DNA of 64,000 nt, taken from Actinomycetota bacterium. Lineage in GTDB: Bacteria; Actinomycetota; Actinomycetes; Actinomycetales; Angustibacteraceae. The notes under the pieces are model-generated. The model saw only the letters and a list, made by a program, of their open reading frames with translations, was not told where the DNA came from and did not search any database. The position numbers and the translations under genes are program-made. Of the stretch, positions 12,844-19,812 are shown in pieces (the stretch's first letter is position 1; each line of letters begins with the position of its first letter). Location of the stretch: positions 35,472-99,471 of the forward strand of contig JBOFBH010000012.1 in assembly GCA_051645425.1 (NCBI GenBank), read 5' to 3'.

Positions 12844-13341
12844 ATGAGGCATAACCCCCGGACCCGTGACCGTGCCTTAACCACCTTGACGACCCTCACG
12901 GGCGGCATCACCATAGCCGCCGTTGCCGCTTCTGGTTGGGCGAGTGCGGTCGCTGCTCAAACCACTGAAGAAGATCAAGCAGCTCAACCTGCGGCCCCCA
13001 GTGCATCTGTTAGCACTGCTTCGGCAACGACTCAACCCACCATCACCACGACCGCATCGGCGACGCGTACTCGGGCGACTAAGACATCACGATCAGCCGT
13101 CAGTACGGAAACGACCCGTCGAGTATCCGACCCCGAATCCACCTTGGTCAGCTCGACGTCAGAGCCAGCCGGCAACACGCCACGTCCTGCACAGTCATCA
13201 ACCACCACATCATCAGCAACCAAGGAGCCAACGGCTCGGACAACATCGAGCACTCGCCCACCGGAGACCACTGCCCCCGCACCTGTTGCGTCATCAAGTA
13301 CCGCATCCCCCATGCCCACCGTCACCTCCAGCGGATCTTGA
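12844..13341 (+). CDS. Membrane-anchored Ser/Thr/Ala-rich low-complexity protein
   Basis: One N-terminal TM (LTGGITIAAVAASGWASAV) followed by about 120 aa of S/T/A/P-rich sequence. Its stop overlaps the apbE start. I recognised no globular domain. Confidence 0.5.
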   Translation: MRHNPRTRDRALTTLTTLTGGITIAAVAASGWASAVAAQTTEEDQAAQPAAPSASVSTASATTQPTITTTASATRTRATKTSRSAVSTETTRRVSDPESTLVSSTSEPAGNTPRPAQSSTTTSSATKEPTARTTSSTRPPETTAPAPVASSSTASPMPTVTSSGS

Positions 13342-14309
13342 GTACCAGCATCGTCCCAGCGCCCACAGCTCTCCCCGCAGCAACGTGGAACACCCTGGGT
13401 AGCTACGCGCAATTGGCGACTGAACCAATCACCGCACTACCCGACGCATTCGCATACGCCCGCGACATCCTCGACGAAGTGGACCGAACATGCAGTCGAT
13501 TTCGTCCCGACTCTGAACTAGTCCGAGTCAACCATCACGCCGGACGCCAAACTCGGGTGAGTTCGTTGCTCGCTCATGCCATTGCCGTAGCGGTGGATGC
13601 GGCGCGCCAAACCAGAGGGTTGATCGATCCCACCATCGGCTTTTCTCTTCAGGCTCTTGGTTACGACCGGGATTTCGCCCTCCTTGCGGATGCCTCTCAT
13701 GAACCCTGCGCTATCCCGCGGCCGGTCCACGCTGGGGCCTGGCAGAACATTAAGGTGGACGCCGACGAAGGACTCTTGACCATCCCAGCGGGGTGTGTGC
13801 TTGACCTCGGTGCCACCGGAAAAGCCTGGGCAAGTGATCTTGTCGCTGCCAGCATCGCCGAGCGATTCGGAGTCGATGTCATCGTCAGCTTAGGTGGGGA
13901 TGTCTCCATCGTCGGGGAGACAAAGTGGCCGGTTCGGTTCCAAGAAATCACACCAACAGAAAAGGCATCCACTAGCGCTGCGCTCGCAGACCCCGAAGAT
14001 CTTCAATGCAGCGCTGGTGGCGCAGCGACCTCCACGGTGTTAGCTCGACGCTGGTCACGCCAAGGAAGTACCCACCACCACCTGCTTGACCCGAGGACTG
14101 GTGAGTCCGCTGCCGGGCCCTGGCGCACTGTCAGTGCACTAGGACGCTCCGCGGTCGCCGCTAATATCGCTAGTACTTCCGCGATCCTTCTCGGCGAGAA
14201 CGCTTGGGTTTGGCTAGCCGAAAGATCCGTGCCAGCGCGATTAATTGGCACCAGCGGCACGGTGCGACATACCTCCCATTGGCCTGTGCCCGTCGGAGAA
14301 ACAGCATGA
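13338..14309 (+). CDS. apbE: FAD:protein FMN transferase (ApbE family)
   Basis: EVDRTCSRFRPDSELVRVN, DPTIG, LDLGATGKAWASD and LVSLGGD match the ApbE pattern. Confidence 0.85.
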   Translation: MSTSIVPAPTALPAATWNTLGSYAQLATEPITALPDAFAYARDILDEVDRTCSRFRPDSELVRVNHHAGRQTRVSSLLAHAIAVAVDAARQTRGLIDPTIGFSLQALGYDRDFALLADASHEPCAIPRPVHAGAWQNIKVDADEGLLTIPAGCVLDLGATGKAWASDLVAASIAERFGVDVIVSLGGDVSIVGETKWPVRFQEITPTEKASTSAALADPEDLQCSAGGAATSTVLARRWSRQGSTHHHLLDPRTGESAAGPWRTVSALGRSAVAANIASTSAILLGENAWVWLAERSVPARLIGTSGTVRHTSHWPVPVGETA

Positions 14310-14968
14310 GGCAAAACCTCACCGCAGAAGACCTCGCGACGGCCTTCGGCGAAGCTCCGCTGTGGTACATCAACCGTGGCACTGGCGTCGTCCTTTTAGT
14401 GCTTTACACCCTCAGCCTGACTTTGGGCATGGTCGCGACTACCCGCTTCCAAAACCGCTGGTGGCCACGTTTTGTCACTCAAGGACTCCATCGCAATATC
14501 GCATTTCTTGCCCTCGCCCTCCTGGTGGTGCACGCCGGCTCGTCCATTGTCGATGAATATGTAGACATTCGCTGGTGGCACGCGTTCATCCCAGTGGGGG
14601 CTACCTATGAGCCGGTGTGGCTCGGCTTGGGCACAGTAGCCAGCAACCTCATGGTGGCGACGATCCTCACCAGCGTGGTGCGCCACCGCATCGGCCACCG
14701 CTGGTGGCTCAGCGTCCATCTGACGACTTACCCTGGCTTCATGATTGGTGTGATTCACGGCCTCGGTATGGGGACGGACGCCGGTGAGTCGTGGAGTGTG
14801 ATCACCACCATCGGCTGTATCGCACTAGTAGTGGTAGCTATGGTGATTCGGCTGATCGTATTAACTCGTCCCGAGCCCTCGCCCGTACCGTTGCCTCACC
14901 CTCGGGCCGCCCTCACGCGCCGCCAAGCCAAAGCGGCACGCTCACACCGAACCAGGAGGACCCAATGA
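14306..14968 (+). CDS. Ferric-reductase-like transmembrane domain protein (heme b type, MsrQ/FRD-like)
   Basis: ATG 14306 overlaps the apbE stop (ATGA). It has 5-6 TM segments with conserved His residues (HRNIAFLALALLVVH, VHLTTYPGFMIGVIH). Confidence 0.75.
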   Translation: MRQNLTAEDLATAFGEAPLWYINRGTGVVLLVLYTLSLTLGMVATTRFQNRWWPRFVTQGLHRNIAFLALALLVVHAGSSIVDEYVDIRWWHAFIPVGATYEPVWLGLGTVASNLMVATILTSVVRHRIGHRWWLSVHLTTYPGFMIGVIHGLGMGTDAGESWSVITTIGCIALVVVAMVIRLIVLTRPEPSPVPLPHPRAALTRRQAKAARSHRTRRTQ

Positions 14969-16473
14969 AGGGGGCACCTACCACCGTCGCAGCGGCCGTG
15001 CACCCCGGGCCCATGGTGCTGGAGCACATCGCTGAAGATTCTTCTTACCGGGCACATCGGGAGCGGGTCGGACGCCTGGAACGCCGACACGCCAGCAAGC
15101 TCATCGAACTCACCGCTCATGTTGATCTTCGCGGGTGTGGGGGTGCGGATTTTCCCTTCGCCGCCAAGGTGGACGCTTGTCAAAGCCAGCGGTCCGTGGT
15201 GGTGGTAAACGTCGCAGAAAGCGAACCGACGAGCGTCAAAGATGCCACCCTTGCTATCGGCACCCCCCACCTCGTCCTCGATGGTGCTCAAATCACCGCA
15301 GAAGCATTGCACGCCAAAGACATTCACTTAGTCGCTCCCCAAGGGCGACCAGGGGTCGCCGTGGCCCTGCGAAAAGCAATCCAAGAGCGAGAAGTCGACC
15401 ACTCACCAGTGACTTGGCACCTGCACCAAACTCAAGACCGTTTCGTCGCAGGGGAAGCCAGTGCCGTACTGGAACTCCTCGCGGGACGGGAAAACCTTCC
15501 CGTCACCAGAACGGCACCAGCAACCGAGCGAGGCGTACGGGGCCGGCCCACGGTGCTATCGAACGCCGAAACCTTCGCACGTGTTGCCGTCCTCTCACGG
15601 ATCGGCCCGGGCGCTTACATCGCGCAAGGTCGGCCGGGATCCTCCGGGACCGTCCTGGTCACAATCAATAGCAACGGTTTACAACCAAATGTGCATGAAC
15701 TTCCCTCCGGGACCACCCTTGGTGAGGCGCTTGGCCCGGCCTGGCAACCGTCGCAGCCTGTACTTCTCGGTGGGTACCACGGCACCTGGCTCCACCCTGA
15801 GGATGCCGCGACTGTTCGGCTGGACCGCTCCGCCGACGCCGGCAACCCACCCCTGGGAGCTGGAGCCATCCTGGCTTTAAGCGAGGGGCAATGCCCAGTC
15901 ATGCGGACCGCCCGAATCGCGAGGTTCCTCGCGGCGCAATCCGCGAATCGCTGCGGCCCCTGCAAGATGGGCCTGCCGGCGTTAGCCGTCGCAATTGACC
16001 ACCTAGCCCGTGGCATTGATACTGTCGGGCGCATTCAGGAACTCGCCTTATTGGTCATTGAACGTGGGGCTTGCGGGCACCCTGATGCCACGGCCCGCCT
16101 CGTCGCCTCCCTCTTGGTCGCCTTCCCGGATGAAGTGACGCATCACCAAAACGGACGGTGCGGCCTTGGCGCCCCAGTAGCCACCGCCGCGACCACGCCA
16201 GCCATCACTCATGGCGCGCCGGTCAGCACAGACACCTCAATGAGGTTGAGCCCGGTACTCACTCCGCTTCCTGATCCGGCAACGATTTCCGCTCCAGTGA
16301 ACGGCACGCCCATCGTGTTACCTGATCGGAATCTCATTCCGTCCGCAAGCACTTCGATTCCTCAGCCGCGTCCTGACGTTTCCGGTGAATTACCGGTGTG
16401 GCAGCCCGGTGGGATTTTACGCGGCCTCCCTCCCCTGCCAACCAGCAAGGAAACAGAAGGTGGTCATTCGTGA
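14965..16473 (+). CDS. NuoF-like NADH-binding/FMN/4Fe-4S protein with Pro-rich tail
   Basis: ATG 14965 overlaps the upstream stop (ATGA) and follows AGGAGGA. It shows GCGGADFPFAAK, an SLBB-like region and a CGPCKMG...CGHPD cysteine cluster as in NuoF/HoxF. Confidence 0.8.
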   Translation: MKGAPTTVAAAVHPGPMVLEHIAEDSSYRAHRERVGRLERRHASKLIELTAHVDLRGCGGADFPFAAKVDACQSQRSVVVVNVAESEPTSVKDATLAIGTPHLVLDGAQITAEALHAKDIHLVAPQGRPGVAVALRKAIQEREVDHSPVTWHLHQTQDRFVAGEASAVLELLAGRENLPVTRTAPATERGVRGRPTVLSNAETFARVAVLSRIGPGAYIAQGRPGSSGTVLVTINSNGLQPNVHELPSGTTLGEALGPAWQPSQPVLLGGYHGTWLHPEDAATVRLDRSADAGNPPLGAGAILALSEGQCPVMRTARIARFLAAQSANRCGPCKMGLPALAVAIDHLARGIDTVGRIQELALLVIERGACGHPDATARLVASLLVAFPDEVTHHQNGRCGLGAPVATAATTPAITHGAPVSTDTSMRLSPVLTPLPDPATISAPVNGTPIVLPDRNLIPSASTSIPQPRPDVSGELPVWQPGGILRGLPPLPTSKETEGGHS

Positions 16474-16787
16474 CTGCCGAGCTACGCGTTGATTGGCAGC
16501 GATGCACCGGGCATGGCCTATGCCATGAGCTCGTTCCTGAGATCGTCGATCTCGACGAGTGGGGTTACCCGATTATCCTGGAATCAATCACTGATCGACG
16601 GCTGCATGATCTTGCCAAACGGGCCGTGTCCGCCTGTCCAGCGCTCGCTTTGCGGCTCGACAGCGACGGCCCTGCGGAGGGGACGACAGGTTCGGTCCCT
16701 TTTGCTGCACCACCAATCCCGCACCCTGACAATACTTTTGACCGACCTTTGGGCGAGCGAAGCCGCCGCCGACGCGGACCCGCCTAA
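16470..16787 (+). CDS. Small single-cluster ferredoxin
   Basis: GTG 16470 overlaps the upstream stop (GTGA). The CTGHGLC...ACP pattern (CxxHxxC...CP) matches actinobacterial 3Fe-4S/4Fe-4S ferredoxins. Confidence 0.7.
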   Translation: MTAELRVDWQRCTGHGLCHELVPEIVDLDEWGYPIILESITDRRLHDLAKRAVSACPALALRLDSDGPAEGTTGSVPFAAPPIPHPDNTFDRPLGERSRRRRGPA

Positions 16788-16803: not shown

Positions 16804-17553
16804 TCAGACAAGTAATTCAGCGGCAATCGGTGTCACAACAAAAACAACAGCGATAACTGCCAAAGTTGTGTCAGCACCGGTCCATCGTGGGGGTGGGCAC
16901 GCCCACGTGCGGTCCAGACCAGGCCATCCGCGCGCTGGGACACCCCTGGCTTCCATTGAGACGGCCATGCGGTTCGACTCGCGCAAGGCGGCCACCAACA
17001 AACTAAACGTCACCGCCGCTGCTTCCTGCCCCCGGCGCAACGGCGACCACCGCGCACCCACCCCACGGACCCGCCGAGCGCGACGGATCTGTTGCCACTG
17101 ATCCGCAGCCCACTCCAGTCGGGTCAGCGACGCCACCACCACAACCACCACGCGCGACGACAACCTCAGCCGACCAGCAACCGAATCACCCACGACCACC
17201 GGATCCACCCACAGCGCGACTACGGCACCCGGAAGCACCATCGTGAGTACTCGCAGGCCAGATGTGACCCCCTCGCTCACCACCCCCTGCCCCAACCACC
17301 ACGAAGAGACCCCCACGCTGAACGCCGCAATCATCACCGGGAAGATACGCACCATCGTCAATCGGGAATGAGAGACCACAGTCGCACCGAGCGCCACCTG
17401 CACCCCTAAAGTGATCGCTCCGGCCCGCCAATCAGTGATCCACCAGGAGCCAAGAATCGGTGCGAAAGCCGCCAGCGCGAGTGAGCTTGGCCCGCACCGA
17501 GCAACGAGCGAGGAGCGCCGACGACTCACTCGCTTCCCCCAGCAGGGGGGCAA
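16804..17553 (-). CDS. ykoC: ECF transporter T component (CbiQ/EcfT; YkoC-like)
   Basis: Hydrophobic 249-aa ORF with the MAVSMEARG signature. It is last in the operon after the double ATPase. Confidence 0.8.
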   Translation of the reverse strand: MPPCWGKRVSRRRSSLVARCGPSSLALAAFAPILGSWWITDWRAGAITLGVQVALGATVVSHSRLTMVRIFPVMIAAFSVGVSSWWLGQGVVSEGVTSGLRVLTMVLPGAVVALWVDPVVVGDSVAGRLRLSSRVVVVVVASLTRLEWAADQWQQIRRARRVRGVGARWSPLRRGQEAAAVTFSLLVAALRESNRMAVSMEARGVPARGWPGLDRTWACPPPRWTGADTTLAVIAVVFVVTPIAAELLV

Positions 17554-19022
17554 ATCGCGACGCGATGATCGGCGAGATCGCCCAAAAAAGGATCATGCGT
17601 GGCGACTCCGACTGCGACCCCGACGTCAGCCATCGCTTGGAGAACACTCACCATGGCAGCCCAAGTAAGCCTGTCTTGCCCAGTCGTCGGCTCATCAGCA
17701 AGCACGATGGCTGGACAGTGCACGACCCCAGCGGCCAACGCCAGACGGCGCTGTTGGCCACCCGAAAGCCGGTACGGGTCTAGCTCCCACACGTGATCCA
17801 AACCGAGCACCTCAGCGAGCATTTCTGCTTTCGGTAATGCCACCGCCAATGGAATTTTAATCGCCCGTGAAGTAGCGAGGAGTTCGTCACGGACGGTACG
17901 AGTCACAAAAGTTTGCTCGGGAAATTGTGGAACCCACGCAACACGACGCGCCAAAGGGACCGACCGCCACCGCCATGGGCGCCTCTCGGCCCGGGCGGCT
18001 AACACCGGATGCGCAATCACACTGCCGGCTTGGGGCCGAGCGAGACCAGCCCACAGGGCAACCATGGTGGATTTTCCGGCCCCACTCGTACCGGTGACAA
18101 CTGTCAACTGACCACCGGTCAAAGTGGCGTGGTGACCACTCAAGGCGGGCGTTTCGCTGCTCCGCGCGCCATGCCGCGCGGAGCTCCACGGAGAACGGGG
18201 GTATCGGAAGACCACATTGTGGGCCACCATTGCATCGGACCCAGCTGGCACCAATGGAACAGTGCGATAAGTGGACTCTGAGATGCAAAATTCCTTGCCC
18301 GGCAATGGTTTTCGGGCTGGCCTTCCTTGGCCCGGCACCCACACCCCGGCCGCCAACAAGCCAGCTGTGGAGCCGACGAGAACTCGCGCCGGGCAGTCAT
18401 TCGCAGACACGTTCCCCGCCGCGTCTAACACCACCAGACGATCCGCGTGGTCTACCCACCCGTCCAAACGGTGCTCCACCACGACCACCGCGGCGCTGAT
18501 GTGTCGGGCAACTCGTTGAATCACTGCCCGCACCCGCGACGCCGCGCCGTCATCGAGCATGGAGGTCGGCTCGTCCAGGAGGAGCAGTGAGGGTCGCAGC
18601 GATAACACCCCCGCGAGCGCGAGAAGCTGGCGTTGCCCGCCTGACAATGCGGTGGTGGGGTGATCGATGGGGTACGACAGACCGACCAGTTCCAGCGCCT
18701 CATGCACTCGACGCCAGATTTCTGCTCGCGGTAGGCCAATGTTTTCTGGCCCGAAGGCGATATCTCGCCCGATGGTAGGGGCCACGGCACCAGATGTTGG
18801 ATCCTGGGGGAGGTACCCTACCCGTCCGGTCACTTCCACGACTCCGGTGAGATCACCCACTTGGGCGGTCGTCAGCACACCAGCAAGAGCCCGCAGCACA
18901 GTGGACTTCCCGGACCCACTTGGGCCAGTGAGTAGGATCTGCTCCCCCGGTGCGACATCAAAGTCCAGTCCGTTTAAGACGGCGCGGCGTCGCCCAGCAG
19001 GTCGCCAGGTGACGCCGCGCAA
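17526..19022 (-). CDS. ykoD: Fused double ABC ATPase of an ECF transporter (YkoD-like)
   Basis: Two Walker A sites (GPSGSGKST, GTSGAGKST), two LSGGQ signatures and two Walker B sites. The start is uncertain: there is no ATG, and in-frame TTG 19022, CTG 19034 and ATT 19040 lie near the ykoE stop. Confidence 0.8.
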   Translation of the reverse strand: MRGVTWRPAGRRRAVLNGLDFDVAPGEQILLTGPSGSGKSTVLRALAGVLTTAQVGDLTGVVEVTGRVGYLPQDPTSGAVAPTIGRDIAFGPENIGLPRAEIWRRVHEALELVGLSYPIDHPTTALSGGQRQLLALAGVLSLRPSLLLLDEPTSMLDDGAASRVRAVIQRVARHISAAVVVVEHRLDGWVDHADRLVVLDAAGNVSANDCPARVLVGSTAGLLAAGVWVPGQGRPARKPLPGKEFCISESTYRTVPLVPAGSDAMVAHNVVFRYPRSPWSSARHGARSSETPALSGHHATLTGGQLTVVTGTSGAGKSTMVALWAGLARPQAGSVIAHPVLAARAERRPWRWRSVPLARRVAWVPQFPEQTFVTRTVRDELLATSRAIKIPLAVALPKAEMLAEVLGLDHVWELDPYRLSGGQQRRLALAAGVVHCPAIVLADEPTTGQDRLTWAAMVSVLQAMADVGVAVGVATHDPFLGDLADHRVAICPPAGGSE

Positions 19023-19030
19023 TCGAGCAG

Positions 19031-19663
19031 TCAGTGCAATCGCCGTTCCTGCTCCATACGCCCGATTGGGAAAGCATCCAACGCGCCAGCTCGGGCTAAC
19101 GCCCGCACCAGAATCCACCCGCCCCAGCCAGCCGCCACAATCCCAGAAACCACGAACAAACCCCAATACGCGAACTTGTATCCCCACTGCCAGGCGTCCC
19201 AATATGCGAACCACTCGTACACCGACTCCACTGTCGCCGCGAGCGCCCCACCCAACGCAGCGACGACCGGACCAAAACGACGCCACCCCACAAGCAGAAA
19301 AGCAACTTCGACACCGATCCCTTGCAGCGCACCGGAAATCAGCGTCGCCACCCCCCACTGGTTACCAATGAGAAAGGACACATTCGCGGCGAGTAACTCC
19401 GCTCCCAATGCGGCGCCTGGCCGACGAACGACCAACGCCCCGACCACACCAGCGATCAACCATGGCCCAGCGAGTAACCCACTAGCCGGCGGAAACGCCT
19501 TCAACGCGGGATCGATAGCGGCGTAAACGAAATTCCACCCCCAGTACGCCACCCCAAAAACCACACCCAGCATGGCGGTGACCACAACATCGATGGTCCG
19601 CCACCCTGGACGATCACTCGTGGCCCAAATTGCTCTTTCTGCTGCACTAGGACGAAATGCCAT
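19031..19663 (-). CDS. ykoE: ECF S component / HMP-thiamine permease (YkoE-like)
   Basis: 210-aa, 5-6 TM protein. It is the first gene after a TPP riboswitch and is followed by the double ATPase and the T component. Confidence 0.8.
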   Translation of the reverse strand: MAFRPSAAERAIWATSDRPGWRTIDVVVTAMLGVVFGVAYWGWNFVYAAIDPALKAFPPASGLLAGPWLIAGVVGALVVRRPGAALGAELLAANVSFLIGNQWGVATLISGALQGIGVEVAFLLVGWRRFGPVVAALGGALAATVESVYEWFAYWDAWQWGYKFAYWGLFVVSGIVAAGWGGWILVRALARAGALDAFPIGRMEQERRLH

Positions 19664-19689: not shown

Positions 19690-19812
19690 CCGCTCGCCAC
19701 AGCGGACGGCTTGAGGCCCGACTCCCTTCGCCGGTGCTAACCGGATCAGGTTCGAGGGTCTGCGGGTTTCCGCACTCTCAGCGCCCATGGCGCTCCCCTG
19801 TCGTCTAACCAA
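19690..19812 (-). promoter_or_regulatory. TPP (THI-box) riboswitch
   Basis: The minus strand reads GGGGAGCGCC..GCUGAGAGUGCGGAAACCCGCAGACCCUCGAACCUGAUCCGGUUAGCACCGGCGAAGGGAG, which contains the CUGAGA, ACCUGAUCCGG and CCGGCGAAGGGA cores. A CU-rich stretch complementary to the AGGAGG SD follows before ATG 19663. Confidence 0.9.

Follow-up and report, generated by a model that had tools for sequence, protein, structure and literature searches.

A fold-less tail protein with a conserved C-terminal serine is a candidate ApbE substrate in a probable membrane electron-transfer operon of Actinomycetota

The operon analyzed here lies in a 64,000-nucleotide stretch (the window, to which all coordinates refer) of contig JBOFBH010000012.1, positions 35,472 to 99,471, in the genome of an Actinomycetota bacterium of the family Angustibacteraceae (assembly GCA_051645425.1). 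It comprises five genes on the forward strand, from 12844 to 16787, that are chained by the overlapping stop and start codons TTGA at 13338, ATGA at 14306, ATGA at 14965, and GTGA at 16470. This layout had been noticed in an earlier model-made reading of the DNA letters (the sequence-only reading), and both the open reading frames (ORFs) and the sequences at the junctions bear it out. The genes encode a small protein with a low-complexity tail, an ApbE-family flavin transferase, a two-haem membrane protein with a ferric reductase domain (FRD), a NuoF-like protein, and a ferredoxin. ApbE-dependent flavinylation underlies the functions of NQR and RNF, nitrous-oxide reduction, and Gram-positive extracellular electron transfer, and the question addressed here is which protein the ApbE of this operon may modify. 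The features of the operon are as follows.

12844..13341, forward strand: tail protein of 165 amino acids, an ORF with no domain match in Pfam or NCBIfam
13324..13338, forward strand: C-terminal motif T161-S-S-G-S165 of the tail protein, proposed flavinylation tag, based on the endings of orthologues and on codon variation
13338..14309, forward strand: ApbE-family FAD:protein FMN transferase (PF02424, E 1.5e-38)
14306..14968, forward strand: FRD-type (MsrQ-like) two-haem membrane protein of 220 amino acids (PF01794, E 8.4e-7)
14771..14779, forward strand: loop G156-T157-D158 of the FRD protein, at which the tail may dock or which may itself be flavinylated instead
14965..16473, forward strand: NuoF-like NAD(P)H dehydrogenase module (Complex1_51K, E 6.9e-29; NADH_4Fe-4S, E 4.3e-13)
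16171-16470, forward strand: Pro/Thr-rich linker tail of the NuoF-like protein, residues ~403-502, which aligns within its own genus only
16470..16787, forward strand: single-cluster ferredoxin (Fer4_15, E 7.7e-12)

Profile searches matched all domain identities suggested by the sequence-only reading, i.e., ApbE, Ferric_reduct, Complex1_51K with NADH_4Fe-4S, and Fer4_15. Pfam found an FMN_bind domain, the usual ApbE substrate, in none of the five products, and no product contains a canonical D-x-x-[ST]-G-A-[ST] motif, in both respects as stated earlier. The start codon of apbE (TTG) begins at the third base of the last codon of the tail motif. A programmed frameshift that would fuse the tail gene to apbE was considered and rejected, as the frame offset is not constant among loci and no slippery site is present.

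The tail protein starts with a basic N-terminus (RTRDRAL), followed by one hydrophobic helix (residues ~5-31/38), a disordered linker of about 125 amino acids rich in Thr, Ser, Ala, and Pro, and the C-terminus TSSGS immediately before the stop codon (...TVTSSGS). AlphaFold2, run on an alignment of eight tail-family members in which conservation is limited to the R-D motif, the single helix, and the final G-S, predicted a single helix (residues 5-31) and otherwise no secondary structure (mean pLDDT 53.7, pTM 0.17). With one helix and nothing else in the model, the protein does not represent an FMN-binding domain in truncated or hidden form. The earlier suggestion that this gene encodes a truncated FMN-binding protein is rejected, given that 45 of 52 orthologous loci encode a fold-less protein built in the same way and that in none of these loci is an FMN_bind domain fused to it.

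These 52 loci comprise 43 in which apbE precedes the FRD gene and nine more from named genomes. The tail family shares a basic N-terminus with an R-D-x-x-L motif, one helix, a low-complexity linker of ~50-190 residues, and a C-terminus that, in nearly every locus, stops exactly where ApbE starts. In 45 loci the tail protein ends with [GA]S before the stop codon. Endings in ...GS were found in 34 of the 43 loci (SSGS, STGS, SGGS, TGGS, THGS, TRGS, TSGS, GSGS) and in all nine named-genome loci among the matches listed, whereas ...GS terminates only 8 of 1546 long ORFs of the present genome (0.5%). Two of the 43 loci have ...AS endings; SNAS is among the orthologue endings, and one tail ends with ATTGAS and thus carries the canonical [ST]GA[ST] motif at its very C-terminus. 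Of the remaining variants, one tail continues after TGAS with GAR, and another ends with TRASR. Hence, the consensus C-terminus is [ST]-x-[GA]-S-COOH. The codons of the motif Gly (GGA/GGG/GGC/GGT) and Ser (TCT/TCC/TCG/TCA) vary synonymously across loci, and three loci in which the tail gene directly precedes the FRD gene also encode ...GS, with ApbE encoded elsewhere in those genomes. Because the codons vary and the ending is kept whichever gene comes next, the ending is conserved at the protein level and not as a by-product of a ribosome-binding site.

A word-indexed protein search with the tail protein returned 2069 candidates, none of them significant, and failed to recover the query itself. 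Low-complexity proteins are invisible to this type of search and are probably missed by routine annotation as well.

Compared with the canonical ApbE target, the tail retains the acceptor at the motif end (Ser165) and the Ser/Thr at position -3 (Ser162), the latter being S or T in nearly all orthologues. Positions -2 and -1 are G-G in many orthologues, and G-A in L073 and L074 only. Published experiments indicate how much deviation ApbE tolerates. The seven-residue motif is sufficient at a protein terminus, which is also its best position; the motif Asp is dispensable, its replacement by Ala having only minor effects; Ser is accepted as the target residue, with Thr preferred; and G-to-A and A-to-V changes leave about 50% flavinylation (all in PMC12052999). 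In addition, flavinylation of an unstructured C-terminal extension has been demonstrated experimentally for FMN_red proteins (PMC11334425). In view of these results on terminal tags and the FMN_red extension, flavinylation of a terminal serine is chemically plausible. The statement of the sequence-only reading that the cluster has no visible flavinylation target is, therefore, probably wrong: the sequence ...TVTSSGS that it quoted is the conserved end of the whole family, with TGAS in one orthologue. In the literature searched, which includes the 2021 survey of flavinylation systems, its 2024 follow-up, and a 2025 ApbE review, we found no description of a fold-less C-terminal ApbE substrate.

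The ApbE of the operon scores 133 bits against PF02424 (cut-off 25.6 bits) and matches the solved ApbE structures 1vrm (E 2e-15) and 6nxi (E 5e-13). Among the residues whose roles are described in PMC12052999 (Vibrio cholerae numbering), the equivalents of His257 (HHLLDPRTG aligned to SHIIDPTTG) and Ser241 (AATS aligned to IATS) are kept, as are the FAD-pocket motifs DLGATGKAWA and GGD. The ORF begins about 15 residues ahead of the domain, with no upstream extension possible, and no orthologue shows a hydrophobic signal segment at its N-terminus, as judged by eye. Since it lacks a signal peptide, the enzyme is presumably cytoplasmic. As a separate observation, Asp-type ApbE paralogues of other Actinomycetes genomes (L160, L161), as far as their N-termini were recovered, also seem by eye to begin right at the MGT motif and to lack a signal peptide; if these starts are right, cytoplasmic ApbEs may be common in Actinomycetota.

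This is the single ApbE in the genome, whose assembly is 99.45% complete in 13 contigs. Six-frame searches of the genome yielded no match to FMN_bind, NqrB/RnfD, or DUF2271; DUF3570, Flavodoxin_4, and FMN_red were not searched for. A genome-wide scan for D-x-x-[ST]-G-A-[ST] gave four matches, and none is a credible site: three were judged to be short or off-frame ORFs, and the fourth, in a long ORF, looks by eye like what we take to be the actuator-domain motif of a P-type ATPase. Thus, of the options listed by the sequence-only reading, an acceptor encoded elsewhere is unlikely, and the one that survives is that the module works differently from the characterized ApbE systems.

The cluster is conserved as a unit; a lack of such conservation would have spoken against the sequence-only reading. 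After 40 relatives had been searched with the NuoF-like protein and 16 wider loci fetched, the order ApbE-FRD-NuoF-ferredoxin was found in all 16, and several genomes contain two copies of the cluster. The full colinear set was further observed in the majority of some 50 additional loci, Thermoleophilia among them; these comprise approximately 28 of 40 loci in one set and nine loci of named genomes among the matches listed, e.g., a Nocardioides metagenome-assembled genome (MAG), Solirubrobacterales MAGs, Symbioplanes lichenis, and Kibdelosporangium banguiense. With the order kept in 16/16 wider loci and in most of the further ones, chance does not come close to explaining the arrangement. Orthologues of the NuoF-like protein are about 50% identical within the family, with true NuoF set apart at 27-29%, and at E <= 1e-35 they occur in 174 of 401 Actinomycetes genomes, representing 80 of 164 genera. 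A profile scan of genome contigs for the NuoF-like protein gave 80 loci, most of them of lower identity and apparently canonical NuoF; about 25 were useful, among the matches listed. The operon was not found in a plasmid collection searched with megablast.

In Streptomyces-like lineages the cluster is reduced to an FRD gene plus an in-frame fusion of the NuoF-like protein and the ferredoxin, with neither apbE nor the tail gene. In these loci (L044, L045, L048, L049) the FRD protein is extended at both ends by long disordered segments, and the fused NuoF-ferredoxin ORF is ~480-490 amino acids long.

The FRD protein scores just above the PF01794 cut-off (29.5 against 28 bits). Each of its four putative haem ligands (H62, H76, H138, H151) is present in 50-51 of 51 orthologues, at the x13 and x12 spacings typical of two-haem proteins of the NOX type. 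The AlphaFold2 model (pLDDT 80.5) has helices at residues 18-44, 55-82, 103-124, 126-154, and 162-186 and a basic C-terminal helix, i.e., five predicted transmembrane (TM) helices and not the six of the ferric reductase superfamily. The best Foldseek matches are STEAP2, the TM domain of csNOX5, SpNOX, and STEAP1, with TM-scores of 0.46-0.56 against 7tai, 5o0t, and 8qta. From the distribution of charges, the basic loops and the C-terminus are predicted to lie inside, so that H76 and H151 would face outward. Six residues past H151 is a loop that reads G[TS]D in 46 of the 51 FRD proteins. Precisely three proteins have AGR in its place, all from Streptomyces-like clusters without apbE and the tail gene, and two genomes with such ApbE-less clusters contain no ApbE at all. 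Because the loop is absent where both ApbE and the tail gene are absent, the outer face of the FRD protein appears to be linked to the flavin function. Two proteins (L058 and L066) have GAD at this position in clusters that do contain apbE and the tail gene; as Ala replaces the hydroxyl residue there, the loop threonine seems not to be an obligatory attachment site. Moreover, the tail gene, ApbE, and the GTD loop occur together and are absent together, and this presence-absence pattern therefore agrees with the tail protein being the partner of ApbE.

The NuoF-like family conserves the motifs G-x-GGA-x-FP-xxx-K and N-xx-E-x-EP-xxx-KD, and the NADH/FMN signatures, whose absence would have spoken against the sequence-only reading, are present in this protein. 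Five cysteines (Cys310/330/333/370/399) are conserved in 56-57 of 57 orthologues. Two of them form C330-G-P-C333 (15952-15963), a C-x2-C pair instead of the C-x2-C-x2-C of cluster N3, and this pair together with the three other invariant cysteines (C310, C370, C399) suggests that the Fe-S cluster is ligated differently. The protein differs from NuoF also in its equivalog score (128 bits against a 558-bit cut-off) and in lying outside a nuo operon; the true nuoF of the genome is located on another contig and its product is 27% identical. The core extends from residue 1 to ~402. The Pro-rich tail that the sequence-only reading called unusual is real but genus-specific: this Pro/Thr/Ser-rich segment is conserved only in a genome of the same genus, elsewhere being replaced by a short spacer or the joint of the ferredoxin fusion, and we read it as a variable linker. 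A GSSGT sequence in the NuoF-like protein (residues 225-229) was considered as a flavinylation site and rejected; its Gly-Thr presumably matches the canonical GTK of NuoF.

The ferredoxin scores 46 bits against Fer4_15 (cut-off 22.4 bits). It has the pattern C12-x2-H-x2-C18 ... C56-P, with C12, C18, and C56 present in 54 of 54 orthologues and no fourth conserved cysteine; having only three conserved cysteines indicates a ferredoxin of the [3Fe-4S] type. In the Streptomyces-like clusters it is the domain fused in frame to the NuoF-like protein.

The route from NAD(P)H through the NuoF-like protein, the ferredoxin, and the FRD protein to the outside, already outlined in the sequence-only reading, is supported by the cofactor motifs and by the predicted NOX/STEAP-like fold. 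We consider it moderately probable (about 0.6) that, in addition, the signal-less ApbE flavinylates the terminal serine of the tail protein, which then takes electrons from the outer haem at the end of this chain. In this reading, the operon most likely provides a one-way path by which electrons of cytoplasmic NAD(P)H reach the outer side of the membrane. Using a non-covalently bound FMN, the NuoF-like protein would oxidize NAD(P)H and pass the electrons to its own Fe-S cluster. The small [3Fe-4S] ferredoxin would take them from there to the FRD protein with its five helices, where they would enter at the inner haem b and move on to the outer haem ligated by H76 and H151. The extracytoplasmic acceptor would be the tail protein, with FMN linked by ApbE through a phosphoester bond to Ser165, its final residue. 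As this ApbE has no signal peptide, the flavin would probably be attached prior to translocation of the tail, in the cytoplasm with its supply of FAD. The FMN-tipped tail may then dock near the G-T-D loop beside the outer haem and hand electrons over to an outside acceptor, possibly Fe(III), free flavins, quinones, or a wall-associated enzyme.

Several points weigh against the tail protein as the substrate of this ApbE. The canonical Gly(-2)-Ala(-1) is replaced in the window by Ser163 and Gly164, and the canonical Asp(-6) by Thr. In one genus (L025, L026) the tail ends with STPSAP or APSTPS, and in 3 of the 43 loci no small tail ORF was seen; low-complexity proteins are, in general, easily over-interpreted. 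The enzyme itself deviates at the position of Asp285, a member of the proposed Asp-Ser-His triad that is normally found in a TAD-x-L-[AS]-T motif. Here the residue is Asn (AANIAST, residues ~265-271, 14130-14150), as in 41 of 44 orthologues, the others having Gly (one) or Glu (two), while other ApbE paralogues of related genomes keep Asp (ADAYATA) or are of the Glu type (AEVWSK). With Asn in place of Asp285, canonical activity of this enzyme cannot be assumed. The two Glu-type ApbEs of the cluster (L074, L077) come from precisely the two loci in which residues follow the motif serine of the tail, a correlation that we regard as a lead and not a result, as it comprises two cases only and a different ApbE subfamily.

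The predicted topology is also awkward, with ApbE in the cytoplasm and the tail outside by the positive-inside rule, and we know of no precedent for flavinylation before export in ApbE systems. The simplest way to reconcile the two is modification in the cytoplasm and export thereafter, for which the Tat pathway was considered. TatC is present in the genome and many tail orthologues have an RR pair beside the hydrophobic segment, the conserved motif being R-D-x-x-L-(R-R)-hydrophobic, but the clade of the window reads R-D-R-A-L-T-T, with no twin arginine and no clear Tat signal. Tat export of the tail is thus neither supported nor excluded by these motifs.

The deviation at Asp285 bears directly on an alternative in which this ApbE clade is not a transferase but an FAD- or FMN-binding or FMN-delivering factor or a redox subunit, the conserved tail end serving for docking, processing, or wall attachment. 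Asn in 41 of 44 orthologues next to Asp in other paralogues of the same genomes, and the absence of the canonical Ala from the tail motif, speak for this explanation, and ApbE-family proteins such as Treponema Ftp reportedly can have other flavin-handling activities. Against it stand the retained equivalents of His257 and Ser241 and the intact FAD-pocket motifs. The tight stop-start coupling of the tail gene to apbE, the existence of a TGAS variant, and the fact that tail, ApbE, and GTD loop are found together likewise suggest an enzyme and its substrate. We judge this alternative unlikely, if the strongest of the competing explanations. Slightly less probable is that ApbE acts on the FRD protein, at Thr157 of the G-T-D loop, in the manner of NqrB/RnfD, with the tail as an accessory or anchoring subunit. 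The loop lies close to the haem ligand H151, is common among the FRD proteins, and gives way to AGR exactly where ApbE and the tail gene are missing, all in favor of such a site. On the other hand, the two clusters with Ala in the loop keep ApbE, the tail gene, and its ...GGS ending; the loop context G-x-G-T-D resembles [ST]GA[ST] less closely than the tail motif does; the loop is predicted to face outward while ApbE has no signal peptide; and the invariant terminal G-S would be left unexplained.

Two further explanations deny the tail any redox role or place the substrate elsewhere. The tail gene, having a signal-like N-terminus, a conserved extreme C-terminus, and a stop codon overlapping the next start, is formally similar in layout to what is said in reviews of SecM/MifM-type monitors and could be a regulatory leader, such as an upstream ORF that monitors secretion or couples translation; alternatively, it could be the split-off anchor of a once anchored and exported ApbE, as the signal-less enzyme would gain an anchor if fused to it. 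Either is very improbable: an in-frame fusion with ApbE occurs in none of the 52 loci and the frame offset is not constant, only three to four terminal residues are conserved, without the Pro of known arrest motifs, the ending is kept when the tail gene precedes the FRD gene and not apbE, and a long linker is maintained in every lineage. Least probable of all, in our estimate, is that the true substrate is an ordinary flavoprotein whose gene lies at another place in the genome or within the ~0.5% missing from it. The fragmentation of the assembly and the three domain classes outside the scope of our searches leave some room for such a protein, but the six-frame searches and the motif scan described above gave no candidate, and the tail gene accompanies ApbE across dozens of genera.

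Among known systems, the operon most resembles the MsrQ-like clusters for flavinylation-associated transmembrane electron transfer, defined by Meheust et al. (2021; eLife 10:e66878, PMC8238504). In that survey and its follow-up (Huang et al., 2024, mSystems, PMC11334425), these clusters are characterized by a common PF01794 two-haem protein together with apbE and come mostly from Actinobacteria, and in 31 of them a NuoF-like protein (PF10589) is the presumed entry point for NAD(P)H (PMC8238504). The present operon shares the PF01794 gene directly downstream of apbE, the conserved pairing of the two, and the four-histidine sites for two haems. It departs from that class in having no FMN_bind (PF04205) gene in the cluster and no extracytosolic ApbE marked by a lipobox or signal peptide. 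The place of the substrate is taken by the fold-less tail protein, and a ferredoxin is not mentioned in the passages of these papers that were consulted. In the 2021 survey, genes for ApbE and for FMN_bind proteins were left out if they encoded no signal peptide, and further substrates of orphan ApbEs are said to remain after the addition of DUF2271 and DUF3570 (PMC8238504).

The closest parallel to the tail motif is an engineered one, the Flavin-tag with the sequence D-x-x-S-G-A-T (Tong, Lee, Drenth & Fraaije, 2021; ref. 59 in PMC12052999). As far as its description in that source goes, a short unstructured peptide with a final acceptor Ser or Thr is enough there too, and works best at a terminus; the tail differs from it in being natural, in its [ST]-x-G-S motif, and in that the acceptor would be the last residue, with a free carboxylate. 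In the FMN_red protein of Lactococcus, the flavinylated tail folds back onto the flavin-binding domain of the same protein (PMC11334425), whereas the tail protein has no such fold. The cytoplasmic ApbE of Klebsiella pneumoniae likewise lacks a signal peptide, but its substrate is a soluble fumarate reductase with an FMN_bind domain (PMC12052999) and not a membrane-anchored or secreted disordered protein.

The FRD protein itself shares with the NOX/STEAP/MsrQ proteins the overall fold, the H-x13-H and H-x12-H pairs on two helices, and a cytoplasmic NAD(P)H source. This ferric-reductase-domain superfamily was reportedly treated by Zhang et al. in 2013, and its members are said to include the structures 5o0t, 8qq7, and 7tai. 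In contrast to NOX and STEAP, the protein has five TM helices and not six, and no fused FAD/NADPH dehydrogenase, the NuoF-like protein and the ferredoxin being the likely donor. Similarly, the NuoF-like protein has the Complex1_51K and NADH_4Fe-4S domains and the GGAxFP and ExEPxxxKD motifs of NuoF/Nqo1, from which it is set apart by C-x2-C in place of C-x2-C-x2-C, the extra conserved cysteines, and its location away from a nuo operon.

To our knowledge, all ApbE substrates accepted so far carry the flavin within or beside a folded domain. If the tail protein is indeed modified, a protein with a C-terminal [ST]-x-G-S tag would explain some of the orphan ApbEs in Actinomycetota, and the engineered Flavin-tag would have a natural counterpart. 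A shorter tag that needs neither Asp nor Ala, with a matching enzyme, would then be available for biotechnology. The same outcome would raise the questions of whether cytoplasmic flavinylation followed by export is possible and whether a flavin on a flexible tether can carry electrons through a thick cell wall.

A bolder generalization, which we put forward tentatively and rate as rather doubtful in its entirety, is that such tails are natural flavin-tags, i.e., a widespread class of domain-less ApbE substrates in Actinomycetota that are modified by a cytoplasmic, Asp285-less ApbE, translationally coupled to them, and exported as FMN-tipped shuttles. The free alpha-carboxylate of the substrate may in this case replace Asp285 in positioning the metal or the histidine; that all 41 Asn-type ApbEs belong to this type of cluster, and that the two Glu-type enzymes go with tails in which the motif is not at the very end, are thin clues to this effect. 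The resulting flavin on a leash could span the Gram-positive wall and be reloaded at the G-T-D loop of the FRD protein.

The neighborhood of the operon varies. Upstream, it is bounded by a divergent dnaK operon, which in this 2.1-Mb genome takes the place of two-component genes of relatives: in many of them (L021-L025, L043, L051, L055) genes for an OmpR-type response regulator and a histidine kinase, assigned by eye, adjoin the operon. Downstream, an ECF transporter of the ykoE/ykoD/ykoC type, assigned by eye from ORF translations, converges on the operon end from the reverse strand (16804-19663). It is preceded on the same strand by a TPP riboswitch (RF00059, 67.6 bits) at 19706-19809.

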